Shown here: positions 29,313 to 64,000 of the stretch, one piece after another
Layout: every line of letters starts with the position of its first letter
Numbering within the stretch: the stretch's first letter is position 1
Sequence record: SRR20825010_6182
Strand: one strand, 5' to 3'
Length of the DNA stretch: 64,000 nt
Notes under the pieces: model-generated
What the model was told of the DNA's origin: nothing
Database searches by the model: none
The model's input: the letters and a program-made list of their open reading frames with translations, nothing else
Position numbers and translations under genes: made by a program

Positions 29313-29355
29313 ATATTGAAACTAAAAAGATTCCAGACTATGTTTAGAGCTTTAA

Positions 29356-30111: not shown

Positions 30112-30181
30112 TTAGGTTAATTAATTACCTAATATACCTAATATTTAATATTTTAAATCAAAGATAATTATAAACCCTGTG

Positions 30182-31474: not shown

Positions 31475-31481
31475 ATTCTGT

Positions 31482-34724: not shown

Positions 34725-34737
34725 ATCATAGTCCTAT

Positions 34738-36507: not shown

Positions 36508-36546
36508 TTTATAGTATTTGGACAATGTAATTTTTTGCTAATATAA

Positions 36547-37263: not shown

Positions 37264-37272
37264 TTGTTCGAT

Positions 37273-47179: not shown

Positions 47180-50053
47180 ATGAAAAAATATTTGCAATTA
47201 TTTGTGTTTTGTTTGGTAGCTGGTTATTCCTTTGTGCTCTCAGCCCAGGGTCAACAGACCGTGGCCATAAAATATGTAAAGCCATATGAGTATGTGACAT
47301 CAGATAATAACCTAATGGCCAAAGCATATCTATCCGGTGACAACACCAATTTCTATAGGACTATAGCTTTTGAAAGCGGACAGACCGTGAAAGTTGAACA
47401 AAAAGATGATAAGGCTTGGGTCTGGCTACCGGTAATAGGGGAGCCCGAAATGATAGAAATCACGGCCAGTAATAGGAAAATGAACCAGGAGCAACTCTTT
47501 ACCCCATTAGTAACCTCGGACTGGGGATATTTCAGCGAGGGTACATTCCATATAATTTCATCTTCCCATCAAGATATAGCCTGGATGGATACCCCGGAAT
47601 ATTGTATGCACGAAAGGGTTAACGAGATTATTGCCCCCGCGTTGGATATAATGAAATCTGACAAGGATTACTATTTCGGAATGGAACAGGCCTTAAATTT
47701 AAAGGAATTCGTGGAAGCACATCCAGAGAGAAAGGATGAGGTTATAGAACGTTACAAGGAAGGCAGGTTTACCTGGGGAGCAACATACAACCAGCCATAT
47801 GAAGGTATGCAGATGGGCGAGCAATTGATTAGGGAAATGTATTTTGGCAAGCTCTGGATCAAAGAGAATTTTGATGGGGTTTTGGAAGAGACTGCTTTTA
47901 ATACTGATGTACCTGGGAGAACATTGCAATTTCCCCAAATTTTGGCAAAATCAGGTGTAGAAAACCTTTTTGTGTCCAGAATGAGGGAAGGTTTTTATGA
48001 TTGGCATTCACCGGATGGTTCTTCAGTACTTACCTACACCCCAGGTAATTATGGTTGGGCCGCCATGTTTTATAAGCTATTTGAGGAAGATGCTATCGAG
48101 GCCCTGCACAAAATCCAAAATAGGGTTAAAATGTGGAGCGATTATTATAAGAAACACAATTTGCCCCCGCATTTTGCAATAGTATTAAGCAACGACGCTT
48201 CTGGTCCCGTGGATTATGGACATGTAGTGAAGGAATGGAATGAAATTGTGGCCAAGACAGGGGCCAATATACCTAGTTTAAGACATTCTACGGTAACCAG
48301 CTTCCTTTCAGAAATTAAACAACCGGGAGCCAAGTTTGAGGACCTACAGGGAGATCGCCCTAATATTTGGGCATATATACACGGCCCAGGGCATCACAAG
48401 GCTATAACAGCTTCTAGAAAGGCGGGTAGGATTCTACCTTCAGCGGAAATTTTTGGCACTGTGGATGCGTTGCTAAACAAAAGTTTTGATCAATATCCAA
48501 CATCACGATTATCAAAAGCGTTCGAAGAATCAATATATCCAGACCATGGATGGGGAGGAAAAAACGGTCACATTACCGATAGCATTTTTAAGGATAAATT
48601 GGAGTTTGCGGCCGATGAGGCCGATAAACTGTTACAAGCATCTCTAAATTCCATTTCTGAAAAAATCAAAACAGAAAAATCCAATGGGATCGTGGTGTAC
48701 AACGATCTTTCTTGGAAGCGAAGTGGATTGGCTTCAGCAAAAATAGACAATGCAAATGCATATTATGTTATAGATGATAGGGGTAATGTGGTCCCTTCGC
48801 AAACAAGTACTGGGAATAGTAACGAAATACAATTCTACGCCTCGGATATTCCTTCACTTGGATATAAAACCTTTTATTTAAGAAAGGGTAAAAAAAGTTC
48901 TAAGGTAAATAAAGCGGTTGCACCTAATTCTTTGACGAACGACTATTATACCATGCACCTTGGCAATGGGGGAATTAGTTATTTGTTTGATCATAATTTG
49001 GGAGCTGAAATCATGAATACCACACGTTTTTCGGGCGGTGATATTTTATCAATGGGGTATAATGGAAATGGTGCTGGGGAATTTACCCAGATGACCGAAC
49101 CCAATATGGAAGATTATGACAAGATGAGCAACCATAATGGCAATTGGGAAATAGTGGCAGATGGTGCAGTGTACACTGAATATGAAAATAAGGCAAAATT
49201 TAAGCACATATCTACGGTAGCCCAGAGAATTCGGGTATTCCATCAGGAGAAAAAAATAGATTTCTTCATAGATTTTCATAACTGGGACGGTACACATAAC
49301 AGGGAGTTTAGGTTTGCAGTGCCCCTTAATATGGAGAATTCCAAGATTAAATATGAGGTGCCTTTAGCTATAGCTGAAGTAGGGAAAACCGAGATGAAGA
49401 ATGCCCCGGGAGGTTGGGCATGGGGCGGAACCTATGATCAAAAGCCCGTAACCATACATCCACGTGAAGTGATGAACTTTATCGCGGCCGAGAATGAAGA
49501 TTTTGCCGTAACCGTGGCTACCGATGTAGCTTTGGCCGATTGGATAGACCCTACAAGAGAAGCAGTAGATTATACCGTTCTACAAGGGATTTTGATGGCT
49601 TCACATAAAAGTTGTCATGGTGAGGGCAACTGGTATCATCAGACTGGAGACCATCATTTTAAGTTTTCTTTGGCATCTCACAAGAAAGATGAAAGTACCT
49701 CTTTCCAGTTTGGAACAGCTTCTAACCACCCCTTAAGAACGGTATTGAAGCCTAAATCCAACACCAAAGGAGATCTGGCTCAAGAAATGAGTTTTTTCAA
49801 TGTTTCGGACCCAATGGTTCGTATCAGCACTATTAAAAAGAGTGAGAAAAATAATGATGTAATCATGAGGTTGGTAGAAATGGAAGGGAAAGATAAGGAA
49901 CCTACAATAAAGTTGGCACTACCTTTCAAGGAGCTGATCAAAACCAATTTAATAGAAGAGGAACAAAGTAAATTGCCTTTATCAGGTAAAGATTTTAAGG
50001 TAAATGTAGGTCATAATGCCATAGATACATACAAACTAATTTTTTCCAAATAA
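47180..50053 (+). CDS. GH38-like enzyme
   Basis: Signal peptide; SHQDIAW, FNTDVPG, WHSPDGS, YPDHGWGG. Confidence 0.85.
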   Translation: MKKYLQLFVFCLVAGYSFVLSAQGQQTVAIKYVKPYEYVTSDNNLMAKAYLSGDNTNFYRTIAFESGQTVKVEQKDDKAWVWLPVIGEPEMIEITASNRKMNQEQLFTPLVTSDWGYFSEGTFHIISSSHQDIAWMDTPEYCMHERVNEIIAPALDIMKSDKDYYFGMEQALNLKEFVEAHPERKDEVIERYKEGRFTWGATYNQPYEGMQMGEQLIREMYFGKLWIKENFDGVLEETAFNTDVPGRTLQFPQILAKSGVENLFVSRMREGFYDWHSPDGSSVLTYTPGNYGWAAMFYKLFEEDAIEALHKIQNRVKMWSDYYKKHNLPPHFAIVLSNDASGPVDYGHVVKEWNEIVAKTGANIPSLRHSTVTSFLSEIKQPGAKFEDLQGDRPNIWAYIHGPGHHKAITASRKAGRILPSAEIFGTVDALLNKSFDQYPTSRLSKAFEESIYPDHGWGGKNGHITDSIFKDKLEFAADEADKLLQASLNSISEKIKTEKSNGIVVYNDLSWKRSGLASAKIDNANAYYVIDDRGNVVPSQTSTGNSNEIQFYASDIPSLGYKTFYLRKGKKSSKVNKAVAPNSLTNDYYTMHLGNGGISYLFDHNLGAEIMNTTRFSGGDILSMGYNGNGAGEFTQMTEPNMEDYDKMSNHNGNWEIVADGAVYTEYENKAKFKHISTVAQRIRVFHQEKKIDFFIDFHNWDGTHNREFRFAVPLNMENSKIKYEVPLAIAEVGKTEMKNAPGGWAWGGTYDQKPVTIHPREVMNFIAAENEDFAVTVATDVALADWIDPTREAVDYTVLQGILMASHKSCHGEGNWYHQTGDHHFKFSLASHKKDESTSFQFGTASNHPLRTVLKPKSNTKGDLAQEMSFFNVSDPMVRISTIKKSEKNNDVIMRLVEMEGKDKEPTIKLALPFKELIKTNLIEEEQSKLPLSGKDFKVNVGHNAIDTYKLIFSK

Positions 50054-50061: not shown

Positions 50062-50457
50062 ATGGGGCTTATTGAAAAGATTTCAAATGAAAAAGCAGGA
50101 TTCCATCCTGTTGTGGTAAAGGATTGTTGGCAGGTGATCAAGGTGAATTATTCCCAGCAAAATGAATTGGATAAAATAGATTCCCTTATCCGTAATGGAA
50201 ATAATGCTCTGGCCCTGTGCTTATTAAAAGGTAGGGCGGTATTGCTCATTCAGAATTCGGAAAAAAACGCAGTGTCATTAAAAGCTATAACCATGGTTAG
50301 GGGATCATCCTATGTTATCCCCGAAAATGTTGGCTATAATATAGCAATGGAAAAGGGTTGTCAACTATTTGCTGTGGAAAGTCCCTATAACCGTACTGAA
50401 AATGTGCGAAAAATACCTTTGACCAATGCGGAATTGGAGGTTATAAAAAAAATGTAA
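50062..50457 (+). CDS. Small cupin-like protein (degenerate paralog of 52739-53158)
   Basis: GFHPVVVKDCWQVIKVNY aligns with GYHPFIIKDGWQLAKLNY; IPENVGYNIAMEKG aligns with IPKGVWHNIAMEEG. Confidence 0.65.
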   Translation: MGLIEKISNEKAGFHPVVVKDCWQVIKVNYSQQNELDKIDSLIRNGNNALALCLLKGRAVLLIQNSEKNAVSLKAITMVRGSSYVIPENVGYNIAMEKGCQLFAVESPYNRTENVRKIPLTNAELEVIKKM

Positions 50458-50479
50458 ATAAAGAACTTAAAAATTAAGA

Positions 50480-51184
50480 ATGGAAACAATTGCACCCTTG
50501 TGGAAAAATGATGACGAGCTATTTAAAATAGCCAAAGAAGAACTATTCGTTGCCCTAGTAGGAGATATTTTGGATACCTTAGGTTACCAGCATCAATTTT
50601 TGCCGCCCAATATTAAACCACTAAACCCTGATTTTGTGCTAATTGGGAGGGCAATGCCCGTATTGGAAGCAGATGTATTTGAGGAATCAGCGCAAAATAC
50701 TAACAATCCGTTGATGAAAAAGCCCTTTGGAATCATGTTCGAAGCCTTGGACGACCTTAAAAAAAATGAGGTGTATATCTGTACGGGTTCATCACCAAGG
50801 TATGCCCTTTGGGGAGGCTTAATGAGTACCAGGGCAATGAAACTTATGGCTGCTGGAGCAGTAATGGATGGCTACTCTAGGGATACCAACGAAGTACTTA
50901 ATTTAAATTTTCCTACATTTTCTTTTGGTGGTTATGCTCAAGATCAGGGACCGCGAGGCAAGGTGATAGATTACCGTGTGCCCATTGAAATTAAGGGGAC
51001 AAGGATAAATCCAGGGGACATAATTTATGGTGACAGGGATGGGGTGTTGATTGTGCCAAAAGAAGTGGAAACCAAAGCATTTATGGGCGCTATTGAAAAA
51101 GCCAGAGGTGAGCAATTGGTTAAAAAGGCCTTGGAAAACGGAATGAGCACCGTTGATGCTTTTAATAAATTTGGAATTATGTAG
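50480..51184 (+). CDS. RraA-like / HMG-CHA aldolase family protein
   Basis: VGDILD, WGGLMS, DGYSRD, PGDIIYGDRDGVLIVP. Confidence 0.88.
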   Translation: METIAPLWKNDDELFKIAKEELFVALVGDILDTLGYQHQFLPPNIKPLNPDFVLIGRAMPVLEADVFEESAQNTNNPLMKKPFGIMFEALDDLKKNEVYICTGSSPRYALWGGLMSTRAMKLMAAGAVMDGYSRDTNEVLNLNFPTFSFGGYAQDQGPRGKVIDYRVPIEIKGTRINPGDIIYGDRDGVLIVPKEVETKAFMGAIEKARGEQLVKKALENGMSTVDAFNKFGIM

Positions 51185-51223
51185 CCGTGCCAAGATAGGG
51201 ATGCATTAATAGAAAAATAATTT

Positions 51224-52681
51224 ATGAAAACTAAAAAATCCAACTATTTGTTGGGAATAAGCTTCGTCTCAACCATTGGAGGTTTTCTCTTTGGTTACGA
51301 TACCGCAATTATATCGGGATGCAATACTTTTTTGGAACAGCATTTTAATTTGTCCGCTGCCGAGCTTGGTTGGTTGGTGTCGTCGGCATTGTTGGGAACC
51401 ATTTTAGGTTGTGTAGTTGCAGGGTCAATAACAGACAGATTAGGACGAAAAAAAGCTTTGATCATAGCGGCAATTTGCTTGACTATTTCGGCATTTGGCT
51501 CTATGTTGCCCCCACAGTTCATGGGTGATCTGGATCAAGCTTATTGGCTTACTGCCAACGAAAAACAAGCATATACATTTTTAATATTGGTCCGTATTGT
51601 TGGTGGGATAGGTGTGGGTGTCACCTCAGTAGTGGCTCCTATTTACATATCGGAACTTTCCTTGCCCCAAAACAGGGGTAGAATGGTGTCCTTATATCAA
51701 TTATCCATAACCTTGGGCATTCTTTTGGCTTTTTTAGTAGACTGGTTGGTCTTGACCAATGCAGGAAATGCCGCAGGAGTAATTTCCAATGAACCTTCTG
51801 GGTTTTGGCAGTGGCTTTTTGTGGATGAAATTTGGAGAGGCATGTTTGGAACGGAAATACCTATTGCCTTGTTGTTCTTGATTTTATTATTCCTAGTGCC
51901 AGAAACACCAAGATGGCTTATTTCAAAACAGCGATATAACGAGGCCGAAAAAATTATGGTAAAAATCAATGGAAAAGAGTACGCCCAAAAGCAAATGGCT
52001 GAAATAAAAGAGGTGGTTAAATTAGAAAGCGGGGGAATAAGTGAATTATTAAAGCCTTTTTTAAGAGTTCCGTTGTTAATAGGTGTATTACTTCCCATGT
52101 TTTCCCATTTGAGCGGGATAGCAGCCATTATGTATTTTGCTCCGAATATTATTAACGAATCCATACAGAGTGTGGAGAGCTCCTTTTTGGGGGCTGTATT
52201 GGTAGGTGTGGTCAATAGTGCGTTTACATTCGTCGCGATTATGAATATTGAAAAATTTGGACGAAGAAAGCTGTTACTTGTTGGAGTTGTTGGGGCGTGT
52301 ATTTCCCTAACGGGCGTGGGGATTTTGTTTGCATTAGGATCCCAATACGTAATTATTCCTTTATTGATGTATGTGGCTAGTTTCGCGTTTTCGTTCGGAC
52401 CCATCGTTTGGGTGATTATCAGTGAAATTTTCCCTACACGCATACGTGGGTTGGCAGTTTCCATAGGTAGCTTCGCTTTAATGGTTACCGGGTTTTTTAT
52501 CACCTTGACCAATCCTATATTAATAGAAGAAATTATGCCTTCGGGTACCTTCTTTGTTTATGCGGCTTTAACCTTACCGGCTATTTGGTTTATTTGGAAA
52601 TATGTACCCGAAACAAAAGGAAAGACCTTAGAGGAAATTGAAATGTATTGGCGACAGGACAAGAGCAATAATAGAATATAA
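51224..52681 (+). CDS. MFS sugar porter (XylE-like)
   Basis: GGFLFGYD, DRLGRK, PETPRWL, SEIFP, PETKGK. Confidence 0.94.
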   Translation: MKTKKSNYLLGISFVSTIGGFLFGYDTAIISGCNTFLEQHFNLSAAELGWLVSSALLGTILGCVVAGSITDRLGRKKALIIAAICLTISAFGSMLPPQFMGDLDQAYWLTANEKQAYTFLILVRIVGGIGVGVTSVVAPIYISELSLPQNRGRMVSLYQLSITLGILLAFLVDWLVLTNAGNAAGVISNEPSGFWQWLFVDEIWRGMFGTEIPIALLFLILLFLVPETPRWLISKQRYNEAEKIMVKINGKEYAQKQMAEIKEVVKLESGGISELLKPFLRVPLLIGVLLPMFSHLSGIAAIMYFAPNIINESIQSVESSFLGAVLVGVVNSAFTFVAIMNIEKFGRRKLLLVGVVGACISLTGVGILFALGSQYVIIPLLMYVASFAFSFGPIVWVIISEIFPTRIRGLAVSIGSFALMVTGFFITLTNPILIEEIMPSGTFFVYAALTLPAIWFIWKYVPETKGKTLEEIEMYWRQDKSNNRI

Positions 52682-52738
52682 ATTAAAGACCTACGATTTT
52701 CTAAAAGAGGTCGTGTTGGGTTGTAGGTATTATAACAC

Positions 52739-53158
52739 ATGATTAAAGAATACAAGACAAAAGAAAAAGGATATCATCCATTTATTATAAAGGATGGGTG
52801 GCAATTGGCAAAATTGAATTATACGGAAGAGCAGCATATAGACAAGATCATCCAATTGGATGTACACTTGGAAACAGATGAAGTTTTTGTTGCCATTGCT
52901 GGGAAGGCGGTGCTAATAGCTGCCGAAATAGTCGATAAAGTACCGAAGTTTGAATTGGAACCAATGAAAATTAACCAAATCTATAATATCCCGAAAGGAG
53001 TCTGGCACAACATAGCCATGGAGGAAGGAAGCGAAGTCTTAATCGCAGAAAAATCAAATACCCATATTTCAGATTTTGAACATTTTGCCCTTAATGATCT
53101 TCAGAAAAAGGAATTGGGAATTATGGTCAAGGGGGAATTGGAATCGCTAAAAATCTAA
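52739..53158 (+). CDS. Small cupin-fold protein
   Basis: HLETDEVF and IPKGVWHN cupin metal motifs. Confidence 0.7.
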   Translation: MIKEYKTKEKGYHPFIIKDGWQLAKLNYTEEQHIDKIIQLDVHLETDEVFVAIAGKAVLIAAEIVDKVPKFELEPMKINQIYNIPKGVWHNIAMEEGSEVLIAEKSNTHISDFEHFALNDLQKKELGIMVKGELESLKI

Positions 53159-53179
53159 TTGATTAGATAAGAATAAAAG

Positions 53180-53980
53180 ATGAAAGAAATAGATCTAAAA
53201 GGGAAAAAGGTTTTGGTAACTGGAGGAAGCAATGGGATCGGAGCAGAAATTTGTAAGCAATTTGCTAGCTGTGGTGCGGATGTTTTTATCAATTATTATA
53301 AGAACAAGGAAAATGCAGAAATTCTAGCCAGTGAAATACGTGAAGCCCATGGGGTAAAAGTAAGCTGTTATGGGGCGGATGTTTCCAATGGTGCTGAGGT
53401 AGAAAAATTATTCCAACAAATGGACGTGGACATGGGCTCTATTGATGTTTTGGTTAATAATGCAGGTTGTGAGACCGTAGAACATGTTTTAGATATGGAA
53501 GAAAGCGAATGGGATAGGGTCCTTAACGTTAATTTGAAAGGCCCTTTCCTCTGTTCACAACAAGCTGCCAGGAGAATGGAAAACATGGGTGGTGGGGTAA
53601 TTATCAACATCTCTTCCATTCATGATACCGTACCAAGAAAAGGGTTAATACATTACTGTTCTGCCAAAGCTGGACTTAAAATGTTTTCTAAATGTCTGTC
53701 TTTGGAACTAGCGGACAAAGGGGTTAGGGTAGTCTCCGTTGCACCGGGTGCAATTGAAACCAATATGAACAGGGAGGAGATAAAGAAATTTGGTAAGGAC
53801 AAGTTTGAACAGTGGATTCCGCAGGGGCGTATAGGAGAGGTATCGGACGTAGCAAATACCGTTGTTTTTATGGCCAGCGATTTGGCTAATTATATCAATG
53901 GAGCGGATATTTATATTGACGGGGCATATATGAACCATACTATACAATATGATCCCAGACCTAAAAGAGAAAACAAGTAA
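53180..53980 (+). CDS. SDR oxidoreductase, glucose 1-dehydrogenase-like
   Basis: TGGSNGIG, INYY, NNAG, SSIH, YCSAK, PGAIET, IPQGRIG. Confidence 0.88.
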   Translation: MKEIDLKGKKVLVTGGSNGIGAEICKQFASCGADVFINYYKNKENAEILASEIREAHGVKVSCYGADVSNGAEVEKLFQQMDVDMGSIDVLVNNAGCETVEHVLDMEESEWDRVLNVNLKGPFLCSQQAARRMENMGGGVIINISSIHDTVPRKGLIHYCSAKAGLKMFSKCLSLELADKGVRVVSVAPGAIETNMNREEIKKFGKDKFEQWIPQGRIGEVSDVANTVVFMASDLANYINGADIYIDGAYMNHTIQYDPRPKRENK

Positions 53981-53995
53981 CCCAATAATTATATC

Positions 53996-55141
53996 TTGAA
54001 AAAAATCACATTAAAAGGCATTGCTTGGGACCATCCCAGAGGTTATCAACCTCTTAGAGCGACCTCTGAGACATTTAAGCAATTACATCCTGAGGTAGAT
54101 ATTCTGTGGGATATCCGTTCCCTTAAAGAGTTTGGGGACATGCCAATAGAGGATCTGATTGAAGTCTATGATCTAATAACTATTGATCATCCTTATATGG
54201 GGCAAGCCAATGCCAACAATCTGCTGTTACCTTTAGACAAATTGATTCCGAGGCATAGCTTGGAGAAATTGAAGGAGGAGTCCGTAGGTCCCAGTTACCA
54301 AAGTTATTATTATAATGGCAATCTTTATGCTATAGCTGTAGATGCTGCGGCCTTGGTTGCTGCATATAGGGAAGATCTAATTTTAAAATTAGGTCTAAAT
54401 GTTCCTAAAACTAGAGCGGAACTATTGGATTTCTATAAAAAAACACCGAGTTCCCACATGGTAGCATGGCCCTTATGTGCCACCGATCTTTGGTGCACTT
54501 TCCTAACCTTATGCGCGCAGGATGGTGGTAGGGATTTTATAAAGGATAAAACAATCGAAAATCGTTTAGGTATACAAGTCCTGGATGAATTAAAAATACA
54601 CTTGGAATACCTTCATCACGAATCCATAAATTGGAATCCTATCCAGATCTTAAACCGTATGGCTGAGGAGAATGAGATACTCTATTCCCCATTTTTATTC
54701 GGTTATACCAATTATTCCAGATTGGGATATGCTAAAAACCTCGTGAAGTTTGGGAATAGCCCAACAAATCCTAATATCGAAGTTTCTACTATATTGGGTG
54801 GGGTGGGCCTTGCCATATCTGCGCATAGTGAGCATCAGGATATGGCAGCAGCCTATATAAATTATGTGGCAAAGGCAGAGACCCAAGAGGGGATTTATAC
54901 CAAAAATGGAGGTCAACCAGGGAATCTTAAAGCATGGCAAAATCAGGGGAACAATACGTTATGTAACAATTTTTTTGCCTCAACCATAGACACCATGAAT
55001 AAAGCGTATGTGCGTCCCCAACACAAGGGATGGAACAAATTCCAGGAACAAGGTGCAGATCTATTGCATAACGGTCTTGTAAAGAACATTCCTTCGGATA
55101 CCATAATGAAAAAATTAAATCAGTTATACCAATCTATTTGA
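53996..55141 (+). CDS. Solute-binding-protein-fold protein without a signal peptide (TTG start)
   Basis: LKGIAWDHPRG, YDLITIDHP, YAIAVDAAA, LGGVGLAIS resemble carbohydrate SBP family 1; no hydrophobic N-terminus. Confidence 0.72.
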   Translation: MKKITLKGIAWDHPRGYQPLRATSETFKQLHPEVDILWDIRSLKEFGDMPIEDLIEVYDLITIDHPYMGQANANNLLLPLDKLIPRHSLEKLKEESVGPSYQSYYYNGNLYAIAVDAAALVAAYREDLILKLGLNVPKTRAELLDFYKKTPSSHMVAWPLCATDLWCTFLTLCAQDGGRDFIKDKTIENRLGIQVLDELKIHLEYLHHESINWNPIQILNRMAEENEILYSPFLFGYTNYSRLGYAKNLVKFGNSPTNPNIEVSTILGGVGLAISAHSEHQDMAAAYINYVAKAETQEGIYTKNGGQPGNLKAWQNQGNNTLCNNFFASTIDTMNKAYVRPQHKGWNKFQEQGADLLHNGLVKNIPSDTIMKKLNQLYQSI

Positions 55142-55142
55142 A

Positions 55143-55910
55143 ATGGATAGTAAGTACAAAAATATAAATCTAAATATAGACAACAAGGTTGCTGTACTAA
55201 AGTTTAACAGGCCAGACCAGCTAAATGCCATGAACAGGCAAATGATGGATGAAATTATTGATGGTATTGTAACTATCAATAATAATGAGGATGTTAAAGT
55301 GGCCGTTATCACTGGGAGGGGACGTGCTTTTATGGCTGGTGCGGACATTAAGGAGTATGGAAGTCAAACCGCAGAGCAGTTTAGATCGTTTCAAGAAAGG
55401 GGCATAGCCTTGTATGAGGCCATTGAAAATGCTCCCAAGCCGTGGATAGCGGCAGTGAACGGATTTGCATTGGGAGGCGGTTTTGAAATTGCGCTTGCCT
55501 GTGATTTGATTTTGGCCAGTGAAAACGCCAAGATGGGGCTGCCAGAAGTATTTTTAAGTTTGATTCCCGGGGGAGGGGGTACCCAACGACTTATTCAAAA
55601 GATAGGCGTAAACCGTGTAAGGGAAATGTTATTTTTGGGAGGGCAATATTCATCCGAACAACTTCACGCATGGGGAATCGTAAACCAGATTGTGCCTGAC
55701 GGGGAATTTGATGAAACCATATGGCTATATGCGGAGAAACTAAGCCGTAGATCACCTAGTGCCATCAAACAACTGAAAAAATTGGTTCAATTAAGTCTTA
55801 CATCCTTGTCTTTTGATCAAAAAATACAGGAGGAAGCCAAGACCGTAACCAAACTTTTTTACAGCCCTGAGGCAAAAAAAGCTATACAAGACTTTATTGA
55901 AAAAACATGA
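55143..55910 (+). CDS. Enoyl-CoA hydratase/isomerase (crotonase)
   Basis: NRPDQLNA, FMAGADI, GGGFE, PEVFLSLIPGGGG; both catalytic Glu present. Confidence 0.93.
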   Translation: MDSKYKNINLNIDNKVAVLKFNRPDQLNAMNRQMMDEIIDGIVTINNNEDVKVAVITGRGRAFMAGADIKEYGSQTAEQFRSFQERGIALYEAIENAPKPWIAAVNGFALGGGFEIALACDLILASENAKMGLPEVFLSLIPGGGGTQRLIQKIGVNRVREMLFLGGQYSSEQLHAWGIVNQIVPDGEFDETIWLYAEKLSRRSPSAIKQLKKLVQLSLTSLSFDQKIQEEAKTVTKLFYSPEAKKAIQDFIEKT

Positions 55911-56962
55911 AAGCTGCACTTTTGATTTTATTTATAGGAAGTTATACGGAATATCCGATACCTGGTTTTGGAGGTATAGGCCATGGAATATATACCGTTC
56001 AATTGAATACCGAAACCGGTGAGTTGACAACTTTACATACCATGATGGCACGTAACCCCAGTTATTTGGTGGTTAGTGATGACAATCAGTTTTTGTACTG
56101 CGTTAACGAATTGGACGAAAGCGAAAACCCTAAAGTAGGGGCTTATAAAATCAATGCTGATTATTCGTTGCAATTTTTGAACGAACAACCCATAGCCGGG
56201 GGGTATCCATGCCATATCAAAACCTTTGGCAATAATGTATTGGTGGCCTGTTATGCAACAGGGAATATTCATCAGTTTCCAGTTGAAGCCTCAGGGAAAT
56301 TAGGCCCCGCGGTACAACAATATAGCCATGTCGGAAGTAGCGTTAATAGCGACCGTCAAGAAGCGCCTCATGCACACCAGATTGCCGTACATCCCAATGG
56401 CAGGGATGTTTATGTATGTGACCTAGGAATAGATATTATCAAAGCCTACCATTTTAAAGGAAAGAACTTGGTGCCAAATGATATAAAGGATTGTAAAATA
56501 TCAAAAGGAAGTGGCCCACGTCATATGGTTTTTGATGCCGCCGGAAATTTGGGATATGTAAACAATGAGTTGACAGGTACCGTTTCCGTTTTGAAACGTA
56601 AAGAAGGCTCTTTTGATGAAGAAGAAATCTATTCGGCCTTGCCCAATGATTTTACGGGGGTGCCAAGTGGATCGGCCATACGTATCCACCCTAATGGTCA
56701 ATTCCTATACGTCGCCAATAGGAAATTGGAGGCAATAAGCATTTTCAGAATATATAAGGACAAACTTGAACCAATAGAATATCAGTATACCAAGGGTGAG
56801 GAATTACGGGAATTTAACATTACCCCGGATGGAAATTGGTTAATTGCTTGCCATCAGAACTCCCATGACACAGTGGTATACCAAATAAAAAGTGACGGAA
56901 GATTACAGGAACGTTATCGCACTAAGGAAATATTGTCCCCGGTCTGCGTTGTTTTTAATTAA
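55907..56962 (+). CDS. Lactonase, 7-bladed propeller (Pgl/YbhE family)
   Basis: IGSYT, NPSYL, RQEAPHAH, GSGPRH, FLYVANR; ATGA overlap with the crotonase gene. Confidence 0.92.
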   Translation: MKAALLILFIGSYTEYPIPGFGGIGHGIYTVQLNTETGELTTLHTMMARNPSYLVVSDDNQFLYCVNELDESENPKVGAYKINADYSLQFLNEQPIAGGYPCHIKTFGNNVLVACYATGNIHQFPVEASGKLGPAVQQYSHVGSSVNSDRQEAPHAHQIAVHPNGRDVYVCDLGIDIIKAYHFKGKNLVPNDIKDCKISKGSGPRHMVFDAAGNLGYVNNELTGTVSVLKRKEGSFDEEEIYSALPNDFTGVPSGSAIRIHPNGQFLYVANRKLEAISIFRIYKDKLEPIEYQYTKGEELREFNITPDGNWLIACHQNSHDTVVYQIKSDGRLQERYRTKEILSPVCVVFN

Positions 56963-56968
56963 TAGGTT

Positions 56969-56988
56969 TAACTAAACCGATTTAGAAA
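56969..56988. promoter_or_regulatory. Putative LacI operator TAACTAAACCGATTTAGAAA
   Basis: Fifth copy, in the 52-bp gap before the CoA-transferase gene. Confidence 0.8.
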
Positions 56989-57014
56989 AATATAAATACT
57001 TATAAATAAGGATA

Positions 57015-58187
57015 ATGAGCAATAACAGTAATCAAAATGTAGGTCCATTGAAAGGATTGGTCGTGGCCGATTTTACACAATTGGCTCAAGGACCTTGGGC
57101 AACGCAGATGTTGGGAGATATGGGGGCGGATATCATTAAGATAGAACCGGAAAAAGGAGATTGGATGCGGCACTATGCATATGGGAACCTTTACCCCAAC
57201 GGTGAAAGCATTTCATTCGTTAGTTTCAATAGAAATAAACGCAGTATTGCTTTAAACTTAAAAGATCCAGAAGGGGTAAAAATAGCTATGTCAATTATTT
57301 CTAAGGCTGATATTCTTGTTGAGAATTTTCGCCCCGGAATTATGGACAGGTTGGGTCTTGGGTATGAGGAAATTAAAAAAACAAACCCCAAATTGGTGTA
57401 TTGTTCAAGTTCTGGTTATGGATCTTCGGGGCCATATTTACATAGGGCAGGGCAAGATTTGTTGGCACAATCCATAGGTGGCGGTTCGGCTCTAAATGGG
57501 AAAAAGGGAGATATGCCTGTGGTTACTGCCGTTGGACAGGCCGATTTATTGACCAGTTTATTTATAAATCAGGCAATAATGGCTGCCCTTTACTCTAGGT
57601 CAAAAACGGGAAAAGGCCAAAAGATCGAGGCGAACTTGCTGAACTCTGTGGTAGGCTTCCATATACAGGAAATTACGGCATACCTGCACAAAGGGGCAAA
57701 CCCGGAACGCAGTGAAAGTGGTATCCCGAATCCCTGGTTGGGAGCACCATATGGGCTCTACAATACCAGTGATGGATATATCGCCATCGGTATGAACTCC
57801 GTACAAAAATTGGCTCAGGTCATTGGCTTGGAAAAATATGATTCAGAAGTTTATGCTTCCAATAACATAATAGAAAGTAGGGATGAAATTCGATTTGACT
57901 TCGATGCTGTTTTTCAATCTAAAGCGACCGAGGAATGGTTGGCCCTGCTGCTGGAACATGATATTTGGTGCTCCCAAGTCAATAGCTTCGATGAAATGGT
58001 CAATGACCCTCAGATAAAACATAATGAAATGATCATAGAAATTGAGCACCCAACAATTGGCAAGGTTAAGACTACCGGTTTCCCCGTATGGTTCAGTGAC
58101 ACCCCACAAAAAATATACAAGTCGGCACCCTTGCTAAATGAACATGCCGATGAAATACTCAGGGAATTCTGCGATTTTAACGAATAA
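57015..58187 (+). CDS. CaiB/BaiF family III CoA-transferase
   Basis: GPWATQMLGDMGADIIKIE, NRNKRSIALNLK, ENFRPG, candidate catalytic Asp in GQADL, APLLNEH. Confidence 0.93.
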   Translation: MSNNSNQNVGPLKGLVVADFTQLAQGPWATQMLGDMGADIIKIEPEKGDWMRHYAYGNLYPNGESISFVSFNRNKRSIALNLKDPEGVKIAMSIISKADILVENFRPGIMDRLGLGYEEIKKTNPKLVYCSSSGYGSSGPYLHRAGQDLLAQSIGGGSALNGKKGDMPVVTAVGQADLLTSLFINQAIMAALYSRSKTGKGQKIEANLLNSVVGFHIQEITAYLHKGANPERSESGIPNPWLGAPYGLYNTSDGYIAIGMNSVQKLAQVIGLEKYDSEVYASNNIIESRDEIRFDFDAVFQSKATEEWLALLLEHDIWCSQVNSFDEMVNDPQIKHNEMIIEIEHPTIGKVKTTGFPVWFSDTPQKIYKSAPLLNEHADEILREFCDFNE

Positions 58188-58222
58188 GGAATAAATACAT
58201 AAACAACTAAAGTGACATAGCT

Positions 58223-59284
58223 ATGAAATTAGGATTTGGTCTGTACAGACATATGTTGAACACCGAGCACTATAATTTTGCCAAACAATGTGGCGCCACA
58301 CATCTAGTAATTCATTTGGTGGACTACTTTGGCCATAACAAGGACAATGCAGACCAGCCTATTGGGGGGAAGGAAGGTTGGGGACATGCAGGGGACCCAA
58401 ATAAAATTTGGTCCTTGGAGGAGCTTTTGGTCATAAAGAAGGAAATAAATGATCATGGATTGGAACTTGAGGCCATTGAGAATTTTGATCCGGCACATTG
58501 GCATGATATTTTGTTGGATGGCCCGAAGAAAGAAACTCAAATAGAAAATCTAAAAGAACTAATTCGCAATGTCGGTAAAGCAGGTATCCCAGTATTCGGG
58601 TATAATTTTTCTTTAGCGGGGGTATCTTCAAGAGAAATTGGTCCTTATGCTAGAGGTGGGGCTTTATCTGTGGGAATGTCAAAAGGAGATGAAACGCCAA
58701 TTCCAAATGGAATGGTGTGGAATATGGTTTATGATGAAAATGCTCCTGAAGGTGTTTTGCCTAAAATAGAGCACGACGAACTATGGCAACGGTTACAATA
58801 TTTTTTAAATGAATTGATTCCTGTTGCTGAAGAAGCCGGAGTGAAATTGGCCGCGCATCCGGATGATCCACCAATGCCATACATTAGAAATACACCAAGA
58901 TTGGTATATCAACCGGATATGTATCAAAAATTGATAGATATGAAACCGAGTCCTTCAAATAATTTAGAATTCTGTTTGGGTTCTATTGCCGAAATGACCG
59001 AAGGAGATGTATATGAGGCCACCGATACCTATAGTAAACAGGGAAAAATCAGCTATATCCATTTTAGAAATGTGGTTGGAAAAGTTCCAACATATAAAGA
59101 AGTCTTTGTAGACGAAGGGGATATAGATATGTTCAAAATTCTTAGAATTCTTAAGAAGAACAATTTTGATGGGGTGCTGATTCCCGACCATACCCCCCAG
59201 ATGAGTTGTGACGGTTCATGGTATGCCGGAATGGCTTATGCTATGGGATATATGAAAGCAGGATTAAAAGCAATAAATGAATAA
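58223..59284 (+). CDS. uxuA: Mannonate dehydratase family (UxuA-like)
   Basis: YNF, LWQRLQYFL, HPDDPP, FCLGS, IHFRNV, PDHTP. Confidence 0.88.
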   Translation: MKLGFGLYRHMLNTEHYNFAKQCGATHLVIHLVDYFGHNKDNADQPIGGKEGWGHAGDPNKIWSLEELLVIKKEINDHGLELEAIENFDPAHWHDILLDGPKKETQIENLKELIRNVGKAGIPVFGYNFSLAGVSSREIGPYARGGALSVGMSKGDETPIPNGMVWNMVYDENAPEGVLPKIEHDELWQRLQYFLNELIPVAEEAGVKLAAHPDDPPMPYIRNTPRLVYQPDMYQKLIDMKPSPSNNLEFCLGSIAEMTEGDVYEATDTYSKQGKISYIHFRNVVGKVPTYKEVFVDEGDIDMFKILRILKKNNFDGVLIPDHTPQMSCDGSWYAGMAYAMGYMKAGLKAINE

Positions 59285-59440: not shown

Positions 59441-62143
59441 ATGACAAGGAAAATTTATCAGATTGTAATAATAATTTCAATTCTTCTTATTAACCAATTA
59501 AGAGGGCAAAAAAAATTTAATAGTGATCGGGAAACCTATGATTTGCTGAAATCATTGTCCAATTCCAAGCTGGGAAGTGGAAATGTGCTTTTATTTACAA
59601 CCACACACGAAGATATTGCATGGTTGAACGAGCCCGAAATTTGTAAGATTGATAGGGACAAATTATGGTTAACACCATATATGGATCGATTGAAGTCAGA
59701 ATCCGACTTTAAAATGGACATAGAGCAGTCTTCTATAGTCATGGAGTATTTACACAGACACCCAGAGGAGAAGGAAAACTTCATCAAGTTTGTTAAAGAA
59801 GGACGGATCTGTATAGGGGGTGCATATGTACAAACTTATGAAGGCATGTATTCCGGAGAATCCTTGGCTAGGCAATTTTATTTCGGTAAAAAATGGTTGC
59901 AAGATAATCTAGATGGGTATCAGACCAACGTGTACTTCAATAACGATGTGCCGTCCAGGACTATGCAAATGCCACAATTGGCCAGTAAGGCAGGAGTCAA
60001 TAATTTTGTTTTTGCCAGACACATAAAAGGATTGTTCTATTGGGAATCTCCAGACGGATCTAAGGTGCGATGTTACAGTCCAGGAAACCACTATATGGAA
60101 TTCTACAATCTATTGGGGCAAAAGGATTCGGTTGCAATAAAAACCATGGCGAAAGAAGCGGTAGACTGGTATACTATTTATAATAATACATCCTTAAGTA
60201 ATACGGTAATGCCCGCTATGTTGAATTATGAGTTTATTTGGCCCCAAGAACCAGTGAAGAATTCCGTTCCCTTTATGAATAAATGGAATTCTATAACACA
60301 AATCGAGTTAGATGGCAAAAATCGTATTAATGTAAATCTACCTAAGTTCAGGTATGCTACAGCAGACGAGTTTTTTGAAAGCGTAGTGGCAACTACATCA
60401 ATAGGAAAAACTATAAAGGGTGAACGTCCAAATACTTGGGTCTATATACATGGAGCTGGACACCAAAAGGCGCTAAGAGCAAGTCGGGAAGGCGATATTT
60501 TAATGACCAAGGCAGAAAAGTTTGCTACGGCCAATGCACTTATTGATGGTTCGTTCAACAAATATCCGGGACGGGAACTTTACGATGCTTGGGAGTCTAA
60601 GATTTATCCAGACCATGGCTGGGGAGGTAAGGGAGGCGATGTTACCGACAACCTGTTTCTACAAAAGTTTCTATTCGCCAAATCCGTGGCTGAAAAGATA
60701 TTGGATGAATCTCTAGAAGCCATTGCGGGAAAGATTTCGTTCAAAAAAGAAAATGGCTCACCAATTGTTGTTTTTAATAGTTTAAGTTGGGAGCGTTCAG
60801 ATCCAGTTAATTTTAAAATTAATTTTCAATCCAAGGATGCAAAGAACTTTCAGTTGTTAACTGAAGAAGGCGGAAATGTACCAGTACAATTATCGGAATT
60901 GACTTATTATCCTAATGGATTCATACAATCCGCCAAGGTGAATTTTGTGGCTAATAATCTTCCTTCTATTGGGTATAGAACATTCTACTTAAAATCATCC
61001 GATGAGGTAGAAAAGAACATGGTAGCTAATAATACTGGCACCTTTGAAAATGCCTATTACAAAGTAAAGTTTGGTGACGGAGGTTTAGAGAGTATTTATG
61101 ATAAAGATTTGCAAAAGGAACTGATTGACGCCAAAAGCTTTAAGGCCGGTGAAATCTTTGCGATGAATTCAGAAGGTAATGGTGCTGGAGAATTTGCTGA
61201 AGTTCAGCAACCAGATGTCAGCTTTTTTGACAGACTTGCCAGTAGTACAACCAAATGGCAGTTGGAGGATGATGGCCCGATATATACTAGTTATAAAATG
61301 AGGCAGAAGATGAAGGAAGCTGTTGTTGAATTGAAAATTACGTTTTATAATTCAACAAAGAAAATAGATTTCGATGTTGATCTATTGAACTGGGACGGTA
61401 TTATTTACAGGGAATTTCGAATGGCCTTGCCATTGAATATGCAGAATGGGGAAGTTACTTATGAAGTTCCATTTGGGGCAGTCACTGTTGGTAAGGATGA
61501 ATTAAGAGGTACTGGAGGGGATTTTTATAATACACCGGTACGTGAAATTCATCCAAGAGAAATTGAAAACTGGATATCTGCAAGTAATTCAGAATTTGGG
61601 GTAACATTGAGTTCTAGTGTTGTAACCGCTGATTGGATAAATCCAATAGATTCTTTAAGTACACGGACTATTTTACAACCCATACTTTTGGCTTCGCGTA
61701 AAAGCTGTCATTGGGAGGGTAATAATTATCATCAAACTGGCGATCATCATTTCAATTTTAGCATAACCTCACATTCTAGTGGATGGAAAAATGGGCAAAG
61801 ATTTGGAAAACAATCAAATGAAAAACCAAATGTTGTGGTTCATCCGCACTCTTATAGTCAAACTTCATTACCTGATAAATTGAGTTTTTTCAGTGTAGAT
61901 AAGGAGAATGTGGTTATTTCTACTGTGAAGAAGGCAGAAGATGATCAAGATGTAATTATAAGGGCGTACGAAACAGATGGGGATGATGTTGATGCAGCTA
62001 TTTCCATGTTCAAACCTATCACAAAGGCGTATTTGACCACCTTGATAGAACAGCCTATTTGGGAAATTAATAATGATAAACAAAAAATTGAACTGAACCT
62101 AGGTCACAATTCCATTGAAACGATAAAAATTGAGCAATATTAA
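59441..62143 (+). CDS. GH38-like enzyme
   Basis: Signal peptide; THEDIAW, FNNDVPS, WESPDGS, YPDHGWGG, VKKAED. Confidence 0.85.
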   Translation: MTRKIYQIVIIISILLINQLRGQKKFNSDRETYDLLKSLSNSKLGSGNVLLFTTTHEDIAWLNEPEICKIDRDKLWLTPYMDRLKSESDFKMDIEQSSIVMEYLHRHPEEKENFIKFVKEGRICIGGAYVQTYEGMYSGESLARQFYFGKKWLQDNLDGYQTNVYFNNDVPSRTMQMPQLASKAGVNNFVFARHIKGLFYWESPDGSKVRCYSPGNHYMEFYNLLGQKDSVAIKTMAKEAVDWYTIYNNTSLSNTVMPAMLNYEFIWPQEPVKNSVPFMNKWNSITQIELDGKNRINVNLPKFRYATADEFFESVVATTSIGKTIKGERPNTWVYIHGAGHQKALRASREGDILMTKAEKFATANALIDGSFNKYPGRELYDAWESKIYPDHGWGGKGGDVTDNLFLQKFLFAKSVAEKILDESLEAIAGKISFKKENGSPIVVFNSLSWERSDPVNFKINFQSKDAKNFQLLTEEGGNVPVQLSELTYYPNGFIQSAKVNFVANNLPSIGYRTFYLKSSDEVEKNMVANNTGTFENAYYKVKFGDGGLESIYDKDLQKELIDAKSFKAGEIFAMNSEGNGAGEFAEVQQPDVSFFDRLASSTTKWQLEDDGPIYTSYKMRQKMKEAVVELKITFYNSTKKIDFDVDLLNWDGIIYREFRMALPLNMQNGEVTYEVPFGAVTVGKDELRGTGGDFYNTPVREIHPREIENWISASNSEFGVTLSSSVVTADWINPIDSLSTRTILQPILLASRKSCHWEGNNYHQTGDHHFNFSITSHSSGWKNGQRFGKQSNEKPNVVVHPHSYSQTSLPDKLSFFSVDKENVVISTVKKAEDDQDVIIRAYETDGDDVDAAISMFKPITKAYLTTLIEQPIWEINNDKQKIELNLGHNSIETIKIEQY

Positions 62144-62152: not shown

Positions 62153-63544
62153 ATGAAAAGAAGAAAATTCATCACAGTTACAAGTACTTCTGCTATTGCA
62201 GTTACTGGAGTTTCACCTTTATTAACGTGGGCTTGTAGTGAACCTAAATCAAGTGCTACTTTGCTGAAAGAACAGGCTTTGTTAGCTTTTAAAAGATTTG
62301 AAGAAGTTTGGGATTTTCAAGATTTTTGGAAGAGGGGAAATACCTTCGACGCCTGTTTGGTTTTTGTAGAAGCCCTGCAACAACGTTGGCCGAAGGATAA
62401 GGAAGTTGAAGCAATACAAGAAAAAGTGGGGGAAATGTTGAAGGAAAACCTAACTTTTTTTAAAAGCTACGACCCTGGAACACTTTGGGCAGATGATTTT
62501 GGTTGGTGGGGTCTACTGGCACTCAATGCGCGCAAGCACCTTCTGCGAATAGGGGACATGGAACTAGCCGATAAATACCTAAAATTGTCAACCGATCTAT
62601 GTTGGGAATACAAAAGGAAAACTGCCTATGACCATACGGATGCTGCCAGACCTGTTTTACATGGTTGTAGAAATGGAGATGCAAATGGGGATAGTTTGGG
62701 CGTTAAGAACACTGTTACCAATGTTTTGTTGTTCTTGCTTTCCTCACGAATTTATCGCCTGTCATTGACCGAAAATATAAATGACAACGACAAATATTTA
62801 GATATGGCCTACCGCCAGTGGGTATGGTTCAATGAGTGGTTCAAATTAACTGAATACCGATATTTAAAAGAACTATCTACTTCGGGCGCTTTAGTTCAAG
62901 AACGACCCATGGCATTTTTTGAAGGGTCTACGTATCAAGAAAAAACACACCCCACTTGGGCCGAGGGTTGGGTGTGGACAGGCGACCAAGGAATGTTGGT
63001 TGCCGCTTTGACCGATATGTTAGCGATTAAAAATGAGTTGTCTACCTATCTTACAACAAATAATATAGATTCCAATTTTGACTTAAAAGCCTATGAATCT
63101 AGATTAAAGGATATCATAAAGTCAATAGGCAAAGGTGTTAAAAATGCCATGGTCGCTAATGTGGACGGCATTATCCGTGAGGCACCATGCCTTCCTAGCT
63201 TTGGACCCGAACATGGAAGGGATTACCTCGCCGGCCGTGGTATTATGATGCGATATTTAGGCAGCGATGAAGCAAGAGCTCTAATAAATGTTGACCTGAC
63301 TGGAAATATTGAAAAAACTTTAGCTGCCATTTGGAGTACACGTGATTTAGCAACCAATCAGTTTCAACCCGAATTTACGAGCCTACAAAATGATAAGCTT
63401 TATGTGGAGCAGTTCCGAAAACTTTGGGGCTTTGCCGATGATGTGTATCAATGGGATATAGAATCGATGAAAGAGAAAAATAAAAATGGAGTGTGCCAGT
63501 CCATAGGGCTCGACCTCATTGGTGCTGCTATTAAAGGAATGTGA
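62153..63544 (+). CDS. GH76-like glycoside hydrolase, putative Tat-exported lipoprotein
   Basis: KRRKFI twin-Arg plus TWAC; ADDFGWW (GH76 DD dyad), KNTVTN, WTGDQG. Confidence 0.72.
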
Positions 63545-63565: not shown

Positions 63566-64000
63566 ATGAAAATTAATTATAACCTCTTTTTGGCAGCGAT
63601 GGTTTTATCGCTAATAGTCTCCTCAGCCACAGTATATGCACAAAAAAAAGAAACGAATTTCGAAGGACGTTGGGATATGACAATCGATCACAATGGCAAT
63701 TATGCTTCATCATGGTTGGAGATAAAGCCTTGGGGGTATACAAAAGTGGGGACATTTTTACATACAGGAGGATATCCTAGACCACTTTCAGAAATAAATA
63801 TAAAGGACGATTACTTTTATTTCTCGGTCCCATGGGAATCAGAGAAAAGAAAACTTAAATTGGAAGGTAGGATCAATGGCGATAGTTTACAAGGTGAAAT
63901 TCACTACCCCGATGGTAAAAAGTACCATTGGTCCGCGGTTAGGGCCCCAGAGCTTCCATATGTTAAAAACCCCGCTTGGGGTACGCCTATAGTACTATTC
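63566..64000 (+). CDS. Secreted protein, probably DUF1080 (3-keto-glycoside processing) family; runs off window end
   Basis: Hand translation MKINYNLFLAAMVL...EGRWDMTI...SWLEI...WSAVRAPEL..WGTPIVLF matches my recollection of the N-terminal part of Bacteroidota DUF1080 proteins. The domain itself is outside the window. Confidence 0.6.
   Translation, partial: MKINYNLFLAAMVLSLIVSSATVYAQKKETNFEGRWDMTIDHNGNYASSWLEIKPWGYTKVGTFLHTGGYPRPLSEINIKDDYFYFSVPWESEKRKLKLEGRINGDSLQGEIHYPDGKKYHWSAVRAPELPYVKNPAWGTPIVLF

Follow-up and report, generated by a model that had tools for sequence, protein, structure and literature searches.

A conserved ten-gene cassette in an alpha-mannoside utilization locus points to a possible CoA-dependent step in oxidative sugar catabolism

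We analyzed a cassette of ten genes at positions 50062-59284 of a 64,000-nucleotide stretch of DNA from sequence record SRR20825010_6182 (this whole stretch is referred to as the window). The genes were checked using open reading frame (ORF) calling together with Pfam and NCBIfam scans. An earlier note, made from the letters alone, had described them as co-directional, mostly tightly spaced and lying between genes of glycoside hydrolase family 38 (GH38), and this description holds: all ten are on the + strand, the ORF list gives inter-gene spacings of -4 to 57 nt, and Pfam places GH38 genes on both sides, at 47180-50053 (GH38b) and 59441-62143 (GH38c). From GH38b through the cassette, the successive gaps are 8, 22, 39, 57, 21, 15, 1, -4, 52 and 35 nt, and 156 nt separate the stop of the last cassette gene, which is UxuA-like, from the start of GH38c. 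One of the ten genes encodes a protein with the fold of a substrate-binding protein (SBP). Its closest relative, 90% identical, is found in Arenibacter palladensis, which makes the window that of an Arenibacter-like flavobacterium, and the genome of Arenibacter troitsensis (G001) served as a stand-in for whole-genome comparison. Searching one genome per species with the SBP-fold protein yielded 63 loci, 46 of which have at least 6 kb on both sides. Conservation counts are based on these 46 related loci, with a gene scored as present when its identity passed thresholds set at orthologue level, its coverage was at least 60% and it lay within 10.5 kb.

By Pfam, the locus runs in the order LacI, GH38a, SusC, SusD, GH38b, cassette, GH38c, GH76, all on the + strand. 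At its head lies a LacI-family regulator (37264-38295; LacI and Peripla_BP_1), followed by GH38a (38443-42057), an alpha-mannosidase of 1204 aa with a signal peptide, a 366-aa N-terminal extension and the GH38 N, C and C2 domains, a SusC-like TonB-dependent transporter (42251-45430; TonB_dep_Rec and Plug), and a SusD-like protein (45445-46917; SusD-like_3 and SusD_RagB). GH38b and GH38c encode two further alpha-mannosidases with signal peptides, and the last of these is followed by a GH76-like protein with a signal and lipoprotein-like N-terminus (62153-63544; PF03663, 2e-8). Adjoining SusC and SusD genes, carbohydrate-active enzymes (three GH38 and one GH76) and a LacI regulator together mark the region as a polysaccharide utilization locus (PUL). 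Reading of the N-termini assigns signal-type starts to all three GH38 proteins and the GH76 protein and to none of the cassette proteins, indicating that the monosaccharide is freed outside the cytoplasm and then imported by the sugar porter of the cassette. Scans for sigma-70 promoters and terminators, which do not cover Bacteroidota promoters, gave no excess of sites over shuffles. Beyond the GH76 gene, an ORF on the same strand (63566-64000, 145 aa so far) runs off the end of the window; it has no Pfam match and no similarity to the gene after GH76 in A. troitsensis. In that species, the stretch just past GH76 (L065:10888-16682) holds AraC, a cytochrome P450, a ferredoxin-reductase-type flavoprotein, a Zn-dependent alcohol dehydrogenase and an esterase-D-type esterase, a set that we take to resemble the P450 systems demethylating O-methyl sugars in marine flavobacteria.

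The importer (51224-52681) is a sugar porter of the major facilitator superfamily (MFS), with matches to Sugar_tr (6e-105) and, above the cut-off, to TIGR00879 (335 bits vs 237.8). A short-chain dehydrogenase/reductase (SDR) at 53180-53980 (adh_short, 2e-58) is a candidate aldose 1-dehydrogenase, as it scores above the cut-off of the NCBIfam glucose 1-dehydrogenase subfamily PRK07231 (227 vs 215 bits); its PDB neighbours include Bacillus glucose 1-dehydrogenases and FabG. The seven-bladed beta-propeller lactonase (55907-56962; PF10282, 2e-89) has the periplasmic gluconolactonase PpgL (6igb) among its PDB neighbours and is present in 41 of the 46 related loci. At 58223-59284 lies a divergent UxuA-like dehydratase of 353 aa (PF03786, 1e-55, matched in two stretches; PDB match 3ban, 3e-40). 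It falls under both NCBIfam cut-offs (NF003027, 156 vs 191; TIGR00695, 126.3 vs 199.55 bits), so D-mannonate specificity is an assumption. A. troitsensis itself has two canonical full-length UxuA genes (448 and 374 bits) and three divergent ones (116-138 bits), with the cassette copy (138 bits) among the divergent. Aldose 1-dehydrogenase, lactonase and aldonate dehydratase, the set of an Entner-Doudoroff (ED)-type route, are thus found together at family level only.

The RraA-like protein (50480-51184; PF03737, 3e-30), present in 38 of the 46 loci, is a candidate divalent-metal pyruvate aldolase or oxaloacetate decarboxylase. Its R134-D135 pair, presumably catalytic and metal-binding, aligns with R123-D124 of 3noj, an aldolase for 4-hydroxy-4-methyl-2-oxoglutarate (HMG) and 4-carboxy-4-hydroxy-2-oxoadipate, and the position of D102 of 3noj is occupied by Gly, as in yeast YER010c (2c5q). 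The earlier note had raised the possibility of a modified or branched sugar, or of an aglycone that is acidic, and saw a fit between HMG aldolases and a branched substrate. The equivalog scores of the RraA-like protein are far below the cut-offs (TIGR02798, 48 vs 304.5; NF006731, 54.5 vs 179), which leaves no basis for a tertiary-alcohol or branched substrate; we rejected the HMG reading, and the proposed substrates lack support. The closest solved relative is PDB 5ir2 (E 6e-21), deposited as 'Cellulase', an odd name for this fold. Two small genes, cupA (50062-50457) and cupB (52739-53158), lack Pfam matches and are paralogues (27% identity, E 1e-18). CupB takes the cupin fold in an AlphaFold2 (AF2) model (pLDDT 89), for which Foldseek returns the uncharacterized 3d0j at the top and then the sugar 3,4-ketoisomerases QdtA and FdtA at a TM-score of about 0.5, and it is present in 39 of the 46 loci. 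In CupA, His positions that are near-invariant among CupB orthologues (H43, H90) are replaced. The gene, which only 5 of the 46 loci have at the thresholds used, is probably a duplicate that is either degenerating or regulatory.

Two further genes encode enzymes of CoA chemistry. The CoA-transferase (57015-58187; PF02515, CoA_transf_3, 2e-109) has human SUGCT (9br7, 6e-74) as its best PDB match. With 132.8 bits it stays far from the cut-off of the carnitine CoA-transferase model NF002914 (413), and its best NCBIfam model, succinate-glutarate CoA-transferase, is also reached below cut-off (245.5 vs 750). Judged by these scores, the protein is a family III member and not CaiB proper. D148, in the motif PGQDLLxQS, is invariant in 18 aligned sequences, both distant paralogues included, and we take the Asp of this motif to be the catalytic residue of family III CoA-transferases. 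The gene is the only PF02515 member in the A. troitsensis genome, indicating that the transferase is dedicated to this locus; a control search found no PF02515 gene in B. thetaiotaomicron. The second enzyme is a crotonase-fold enoyl-CoA hydratase/dehydratase (ECH) at 55143-55910 (ECH_1, 6e-63), whose nearest solved structures are 2pbp and the 3-hydroxypropionyl-CoA dehydratase 5zai. E115 in GGGFE and E135 in GLPE are invariant in 26 orthologues and presumably correspond to the two catalytic glutamates of true hydratases. In E. coli, CaiB and CaiD run a CoA cycle on carnitine that achieves net (de)hydration of the free acid. With a family III transferase that retains the conserved Asp and a crotonase that retains both Glu residues, the cassette may encode a pair of this type.

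The SBP-fold protein (53996-55141; SBP_bac_1, 4e-13) lies just upstream of the crotonase gene. Its ORF starts 15 nt after the SDR stop, which leaves no room for a signal peptide, and the protein opens with the first beta-strand of the fold, in agreement with the earlier description of a signal-less SBP. Using the AF2 model (pLDDT 94.6), Foldseek aligns it with the SBPs SmoF (7ofy), MalE3 (6dtq) and TMBP (1eu8) at TM-scores of 0.80-0.84 and E of about 1e-20, at 14-19% identity. It thus has the type II SBP fold, of MalE/SmoF type and predicted to be cytoplasmic, and lacks the export signal and the ABC permease and ATPase partners of a binding protein; no such ABC genes occur among the annotated neighbours of the gene in the related loci or in the distant loci described below. 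Over 34 homologues, mean column identity is 70%, and the invariant motifs include WDHPRGY, DHPYMGQ, FGYTNYSR, GGVGLA, GGQP and YVRPQ. On the alignment, this conservation is enzyme-like and unusual for a binding protein. A search for fusions of 668-2000 aa found none at E<=1e-10, which is weak evidence, and the ESM Atlas returned generic SBP clusters only.

Across the related loci, the cassette is conserved far beyond chance. RraA, MFS, cupB, SDR, SBP, ECH, lactonase, CaiB (as we label the family III CoA-transferase) and UxuA, together with GH38, are all held by 28 of the 46, which identifies the gene set as a conserved unit, and the genes of this core are individually present in 36 to 44 loci. 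The loci belong to Flavobacteriaceae, Prolixibacteraceae, Marinilabiliaceae, Cytophagales, Saprospiraceae and one member of the Chitinophagaceae; 24 of the 46 have a LacI homologue upstream of the cassette. Partial versions also occur. The lactonase is missing from L019, L029 and L047. L033 keeps cupB, SDR, lactonase, GH38a, SBP, ECH and CaiB, with UxuA absent within 10 kb, and four loci are reduced to SBP-ECH-CaiB only (L016, L020, L025, L027). GH38a adjoins this trio in L025, L027 and L033, and sugar genes are absent near it in L016 and L020. Six loci contain a second pair of transporter and SDR genes (41% and 34% identity) with a paralogue of the CoA-transferase after it. We considered whether such a pair partners either a CoA-transferase or a UxuA paralogue and rejected this, since the cassette's own UxuA lies directly upstream in five of the six and the two therefore do not alternate. 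In L059 (Jejuia) and L060 (Flaviramulus), only about 75 residues at the start of the SBP-fold protein are matched, and the cassette contains SASA-type carbohydrate esterase genes; L060 also has a shortened CaiB ORF, followed by PfkB and Eda.

A second, distant clade of the SBP-fold protein came from an even sample of 401 Bacteroidota genomes, 16 of which encode it. One of these is A. troitsensis, and the proteins of the other 15 (L067-L081) are 36-40% identical to that of the window, likewise lack a signal peptide and share the core motifs. Labeling the ORFs of these loci by BLAST against representatives annotated with Pfam or NCBIfam, we found two family III CoA-transferase genes directly after the SBP-fold gene in 15/15. 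Twelve of the 15 have a MaoC (R)-hydratase and three a crotonase, with both in L079 and neither in L077. The loci further contain a GFO/IDH/MocA dehydrogenase (13/15), an MFS_1 or RhaT transporter (14/15), an Amidohydro_2 gene read as L-fucono-lactonase-like (9/15), a second SBP-fold gene (9/15) and an FAH hydrolase read as 2,4-didehydro-3-deoxy-L-rhamnonate hydrolase-like (5/15). They sit among pectin/rhamnose-type glycan genes (GH28, GH88, GH106, GH2, pectate lyase and CE8). Pfam models for enolase-superfamily, IlvD/EDD and UxuA dehydratases had no match within 15-20 kb in any of the five distant loci checked. By gene family, then, the SBP-fold protein, a CoA-transferase and a hydratase are constant, and the sugar dehydrogenase, the lactonase, the transporter and even the fold of the hydratase are swapped non-orthologously. 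A constant trio with swapped partners would be expected if oxidation of a sugar yields an acid and the cell then processes this acid as its CoA thioester. The earlier suggestion that a sugar acid is activated with CoA and dehydrated thus gains comparative support, from the recurrence of the trio in the 15 distant loci and from the five of five checked that have no conventional aldonate dehydratase within this stretch.

The same comparison bears on the idea that the trio of CoA-transferase, crotonase and SBP-fold protein processes an acid unrelated to sugars, for instance acrylate/3-hydroxypropionate or a dicarboxylate, that merely travels with the locus. Among solved structures the transferase comes closest to SUGCT, which acts on dicarboxylates, two loci (L016, L020) hold the trio away from any sugar genes, and the pair is missing from L017. 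Set against this, two deeply diverged clades keep the trio within sugar transporter/dehydrogenase/lactonase operons of glycan loci, and the SBP fold is of the carbohydrate type (MalE/SmoF/TMBP). We regard a non-sugar substrate as distinctly improbable and count it among the less likely readings.

Together, these results lead us to read the region, with somewhat less than even confidence, as the cytoplasmic half of an alpha-mannoside utilization locus, in which a released mannose-type sugar would be oxidized to the aldonate and then enter a CoA-cycling dehydration as in CaiB/CaiD. GH85, CutC and M81 genes follow GH76 in seven loci, and GH92 and GH130 genes occur in others; these neighbours point to mannose-rich N-glycans or alpha-mannans as the substrate. 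The locus also fits the accounts of type B alpha-mannan PULs and of Arenibacter palladensis in the available parts of two studies (PMC6298971, PMC9213526). On the gene families present, the route from aldose to lactone to aldonate put forward in the earlier note is the most economical reading. The sugar porter would import the mannose-type monosaccharide, the SDR would oxidize C1 to give the lactone, and the propeller lactonase would open the lactone to the aldonate. Conversion of the aldonate to a 2-keto-3-deoxy acid could proceed via the UxuA-like enzyme, via the CoA cycle, or via both. In the cycle, the family III CoA-transferase would form the aldonyl-CoA, the crotonase would remove the beta (C3) hydroxyl through a thioester enolate, and the transferase would hand the CoA to the next acid molecule, as CaiB/CaiD do on carnitine, so that no net CoA would be consumed. 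The keto-deoxy acid would finally be cleaved by the RraA-like pyruvate aldolase, or by KdgK and Eda, whose genes adjoin the cassette in some relatives and are located elsewhere in the genome in Arenibacter. The acid that enters the cycle may be mannonate itself, an aldonate that is O-substituted or epimeric, or a hydroxy acid formed further along the route.

The last step relates to the claim that the cassette is kinase-free. Using tblastn with the KdgK and Eda of relatives, we confirmed that PfkB and Eda are absent from the window. That the window holds no sugar kinase at all is doubtful, as the minus strand carries a ROK-family gene of 307 aa (25950-26873). This gene belongs to a second mannoside locus (18242-36525, minus strand), which also has five GH92 genes, a GntR/UTRA regulator and a sugar porter 41% identical to that of the cassette. 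Two of the GH92 genes have PL4-type N-termini resembling carbohydrate-binding modules and one has DUF7402; the ORFs 30182-31474 (430 aa) and 34738-36525 (595 aa) have no Pfam match. Clustering of the unlabeled ORFs of the 63 loci revealed PfkB and Eda beside the cassette in seven (L023, L024, L026, L028, L030, L042, L060), directly after UxuA in L026 and L030. By NCBIfam, this PfkB is KDG/KDGal-kinase-like and the Eda is above the cut-off for KHG/KDPG aldolase. A. troitsensis has three Eda genes, two glycerate kinases and nine PfkB matches, with a canonical KdgK-Eda-UxuA cluster on a contig other than that of the cassette. 'Kinase-free' therefore describes the DNA stretch and is not supported for the pathway: for cleavage of an unphosphorylated acid there is an RraA-like candidate at the locus, and KdgK and Eda adjoin the cassette in 7 of the 46 relatives and are available in trans in A. 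troitsensis.

Two other interpretations were weighed. In the first, the CoA pair would act on a C3 acid, with D-glycerate converted to glyceryl-CoA and dehydrated to yield pyruvate; together with RraA this would make a non-phosphorylative route to two pyruvates. The locus itself is indeed without a kinase, the nearest solved neighbours of the crotonase (5zai, 5jbw) act on short C3-C4 acyl-CoAs, and glyceryl-CoA is a proposed intermediate of deoxyribonate catabolism in the available text of two reports (bioRxiv 10.1101/205583; PMC9007349). Such a route is nevertheless improbable in our view, because the aldehyde dehydrogenase needed to take glyceraldehyde to glycerate is absent from the window and from the 46 main-clade loci, A. 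troitsensis has its two glycerate kinases, KdgK and Eda adjoin the cassette in the seven loci above, and the C3 product of the distant clade would be lactate, which neither crotonase nor MaoC would be expected to dehydrate. In the second, an Ashwell-type uronate route, the SDR would work as a reductase on fructuronate or a keto-deoxy substrate, and UxuA would be a genuine mannonate dehydratase, with KdgK and Eda taking the next steps and the CoA genes serving an unrelated acid. The adjacency of UxuA, KdgK and Eda in L026 and L030 and the ambiguous assignment of the SDR would suit this route, and diatoms are described as containing glucuronomannans in the available portions of PMC9213526 and PMC6298971. 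The window's locus, on the other hand, has no uronate isomerase and no GH88, GH105, polysaccharide lyase or GH2, the transporter is of the neutral-sugar porter type, and the lactonase, which would be without a role, is kept in 41 of the 46 loci. A uronate route is again one of the less likely readings, and we hold it to be very improbable.

Several observations weigh against oxidation to an aldonate followed by CoA-cycling dehydration, the reading that we prefer. At the level of single enzymes, the SDR scores nearly as high on FabG-type reductases as on glucose dehydrogenase in NCBIfam, no CoA donor or priming ligase is encoded at the locus, and we know of no precedent for the 2-oxoacyl-CoA product of the proposed step. 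The CoA pair is also not essential to every version of the cassette, as L017 keeps RraA, MFS, SDR, SBP, lactonase and UxuA and has lost ECH, CaiB and cupB, and four loci (L021, L046, L053, L055) have an SBP paralogue without CoA genes. All four contain GH38-like genes, and L046, L053 and L055 hold two SDRs, a lactonase, two UxuA-like genes and an FAH hydrolase, along with AraC regulators. In the distant clade, the genomes have enolase-superfamily genes elsewhere, so the missing dehydratase could act in trans. Finally, the UxuA-like gene occurs together with ECH and CaiB in 32 of the 46 loci at the thresholds used, plus L056 by eye, and with one dehydratase already present, another that depends on CoA and acts on the same acid would be superfluous. 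The presence of a UxuA-like dehydratase in most mannan-type loci and the absence of the CoA pair from L017 constitute the main weakness, and the CoA branch may serve a different acid, either an O-substituted or epimeric aldonate or a C3 acid.

The paralogous loci L053 and L055 belong to A. troitsensis and A. palladensis, where the main cassette is about 43 kb and about 68 kb away, respectively. Their SBP paralogue is 58% identical. Further genes of the locus encode an APH-type phosphotransferase, two AraC regulators and, annotated in L055 only among the four loci with this paralogue, a GH63/MGH1-like protein. From its gene content, it looks like a diketo-hydrolase-type oxidative hexose route.

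The coexistence of UxuA with the CoA pair would be explained if the pair carried out beta-elimination on a sugar acid bearing a substituent. The sugar set free would then be an O-modified mannose such as 3-O- or 6-O-methyl mannose. Both methylated forms have been reported for algal N-glycans. A kinase route could not use such a sugar; CoA activation would let the crotonase expel the beta-alkoxy group, and the RraA-like aldolase would take keto-deoxy acids that KdgK cannot phosphorylate. This would also account for a cassette beside a separate GH92/ROK mannose locus. The window does have that second, classical mannoside locus (GH92 x5, ROK and the 41%-identical porter), UxuA and ECH/CaiB co-occur in most loci, the GH85 endo-beta-N-acetylglucosaminidase genes of seven loci point to N-glycans, and the enolate elimination chemistry is the same as that of plain aldonate dehydration. 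Against it, no gene of the locus identifies the modification, no methyl-handling or sulfatase gene is found in the window, the logic is less obvious for the distant clade with its pectin/rhamnose-type loci, and the argument is wholly inferential. We consider an O-modified substrate unlikely.

The SBP-fold protein is an obligate companion of the CoA-transferase and probably serves as a partner that recognizes the sugar acid or as an enzyme itself. More tentatively, and as a possibility that we would not rate above its alternatives, it could be a new type of cytoplasmic component and no remnant of a transporter: an enzyme that uses the SBP fold, or a subunit that recognizes sugar acids and lends specificity to family III CoA-transferases. 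With the hydratase it would then form a widespread undescribed CoA-thioester branch of oxidative sugar catabolism. Loci for different glycans, mannan in the window and pectin/rhamnose in the distant clade, would each connect to this branch through dehydrogenases, lactonases and transporters that are interchangeable. In the current view, a dehydrogenase, a lactonase, a dehydratase and an aldolase suffice for oxidative sugar pathways. If the proposal is true, a conserved CoA-thioester step with a cytoplasmic SBP-fold partner would be a new reaction type in carbohydrate catabolism, and functions would be gained for three widely mis-annotated families, 'ABC substrate-binding protein', 'CaiB/BaiF' and 'enoyl-CoA hydratase'. 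Since the cassette lies in alpha-mannan/N-glycan loci of marine and algae-associated Bacteroidota, it bears on the mineralization of mannose-rich algal and fungal glycans, and it supplies a clear set of proteins for assay.

How does this cassette compare with known systems? Every gene family in it is already known; what we did not find described is the gene combination, the proposed use of CoA while a hexose is oxidized, and an SBP-fold partner in the cytoplasm. The deoxyribonate route of Price et al. reportedly uses a beta-keto-acid cleavage enzyme. Its gene families differ from those of the cassette, and it is without the transferase-hydratase-SBP trio. It is still the nearest case in the literature: like the route proposed here, it concerns a sugar acid and involves CoA thioesters, with acetyl-CoA and glyceryl-CoA as its end products according to the available part of the report (bioRxiv 10.1101/205583). 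In line with the earlier note, which knew of no characterized PUL with this set, a full-text literature search that did not extend to the supplementary PUL tables of PMC6298971, where the Arenibacter locus is possibly listed, found no description of the gene set or of a CoA-dependent aldonate step. The yeast/fungal alpha-mannan PULs of B. thetaiotaomicron and Salegentibacter share SusC/D with GH38, GH76 and GH92, the combination of the type B, non-sulfated alpha-mannan PULs of North Sea Flavobacteriia, whereas the available text on those PULs describes no cytoplasmic oxidation or CoA cassette (PMC6298971, PMC9213526).

At the level of gene families, the cassette matches non- and semi-phosphorylative ED-type routes in its aldose dehydrogenase, its lactonase, its aldonate dehydratase and a cleavage step that releases pyruvate. 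It differs in encoding an RraA-type aldolase in place of the DHDPS or HpaI type, in having a divergent UxuA paralogue as its dehydratase, and in adding a CoA module and an SBP-fold protein without described counterparts. These routes include the L-rhamnose/L-fucose diketo-hydrolase route, which the paralogous Arenibacter locus resembles with its two SDRs, lactonase, two UxuA-like genes and FAH hydrolase. The proposed CoA step has its nearest parallels in CaiB/CaiD and in AcuN-AcuK of Halomonas, where acrylate is converted to 3-hydroxypropionyl-CoA via AcuN and an enoyl-CoA hydratase (PMC5651017, as far as its available text goes). In both systems, as in the cassette, a family III CoA-transferase is paired with a crotonase-fold (de)hydratase; the known pairs act at the alpha,beta position of a free acid in a CoA cycle. 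The cassette pair, in contrast, sits in a PUL sugar oxidation operon, has an invariant cytoplasmic SBP-fold companion and no priming ligase, and its substrate is presumably a polyhydroxy acid. That companion shares its fold with CUT1-type SBPs (SmoF, MalE3 and TMBP) and differs from them in lacking a signal peptide, a lipobox and nearby ABC genes and in being tied genetically to CoA-transferases.

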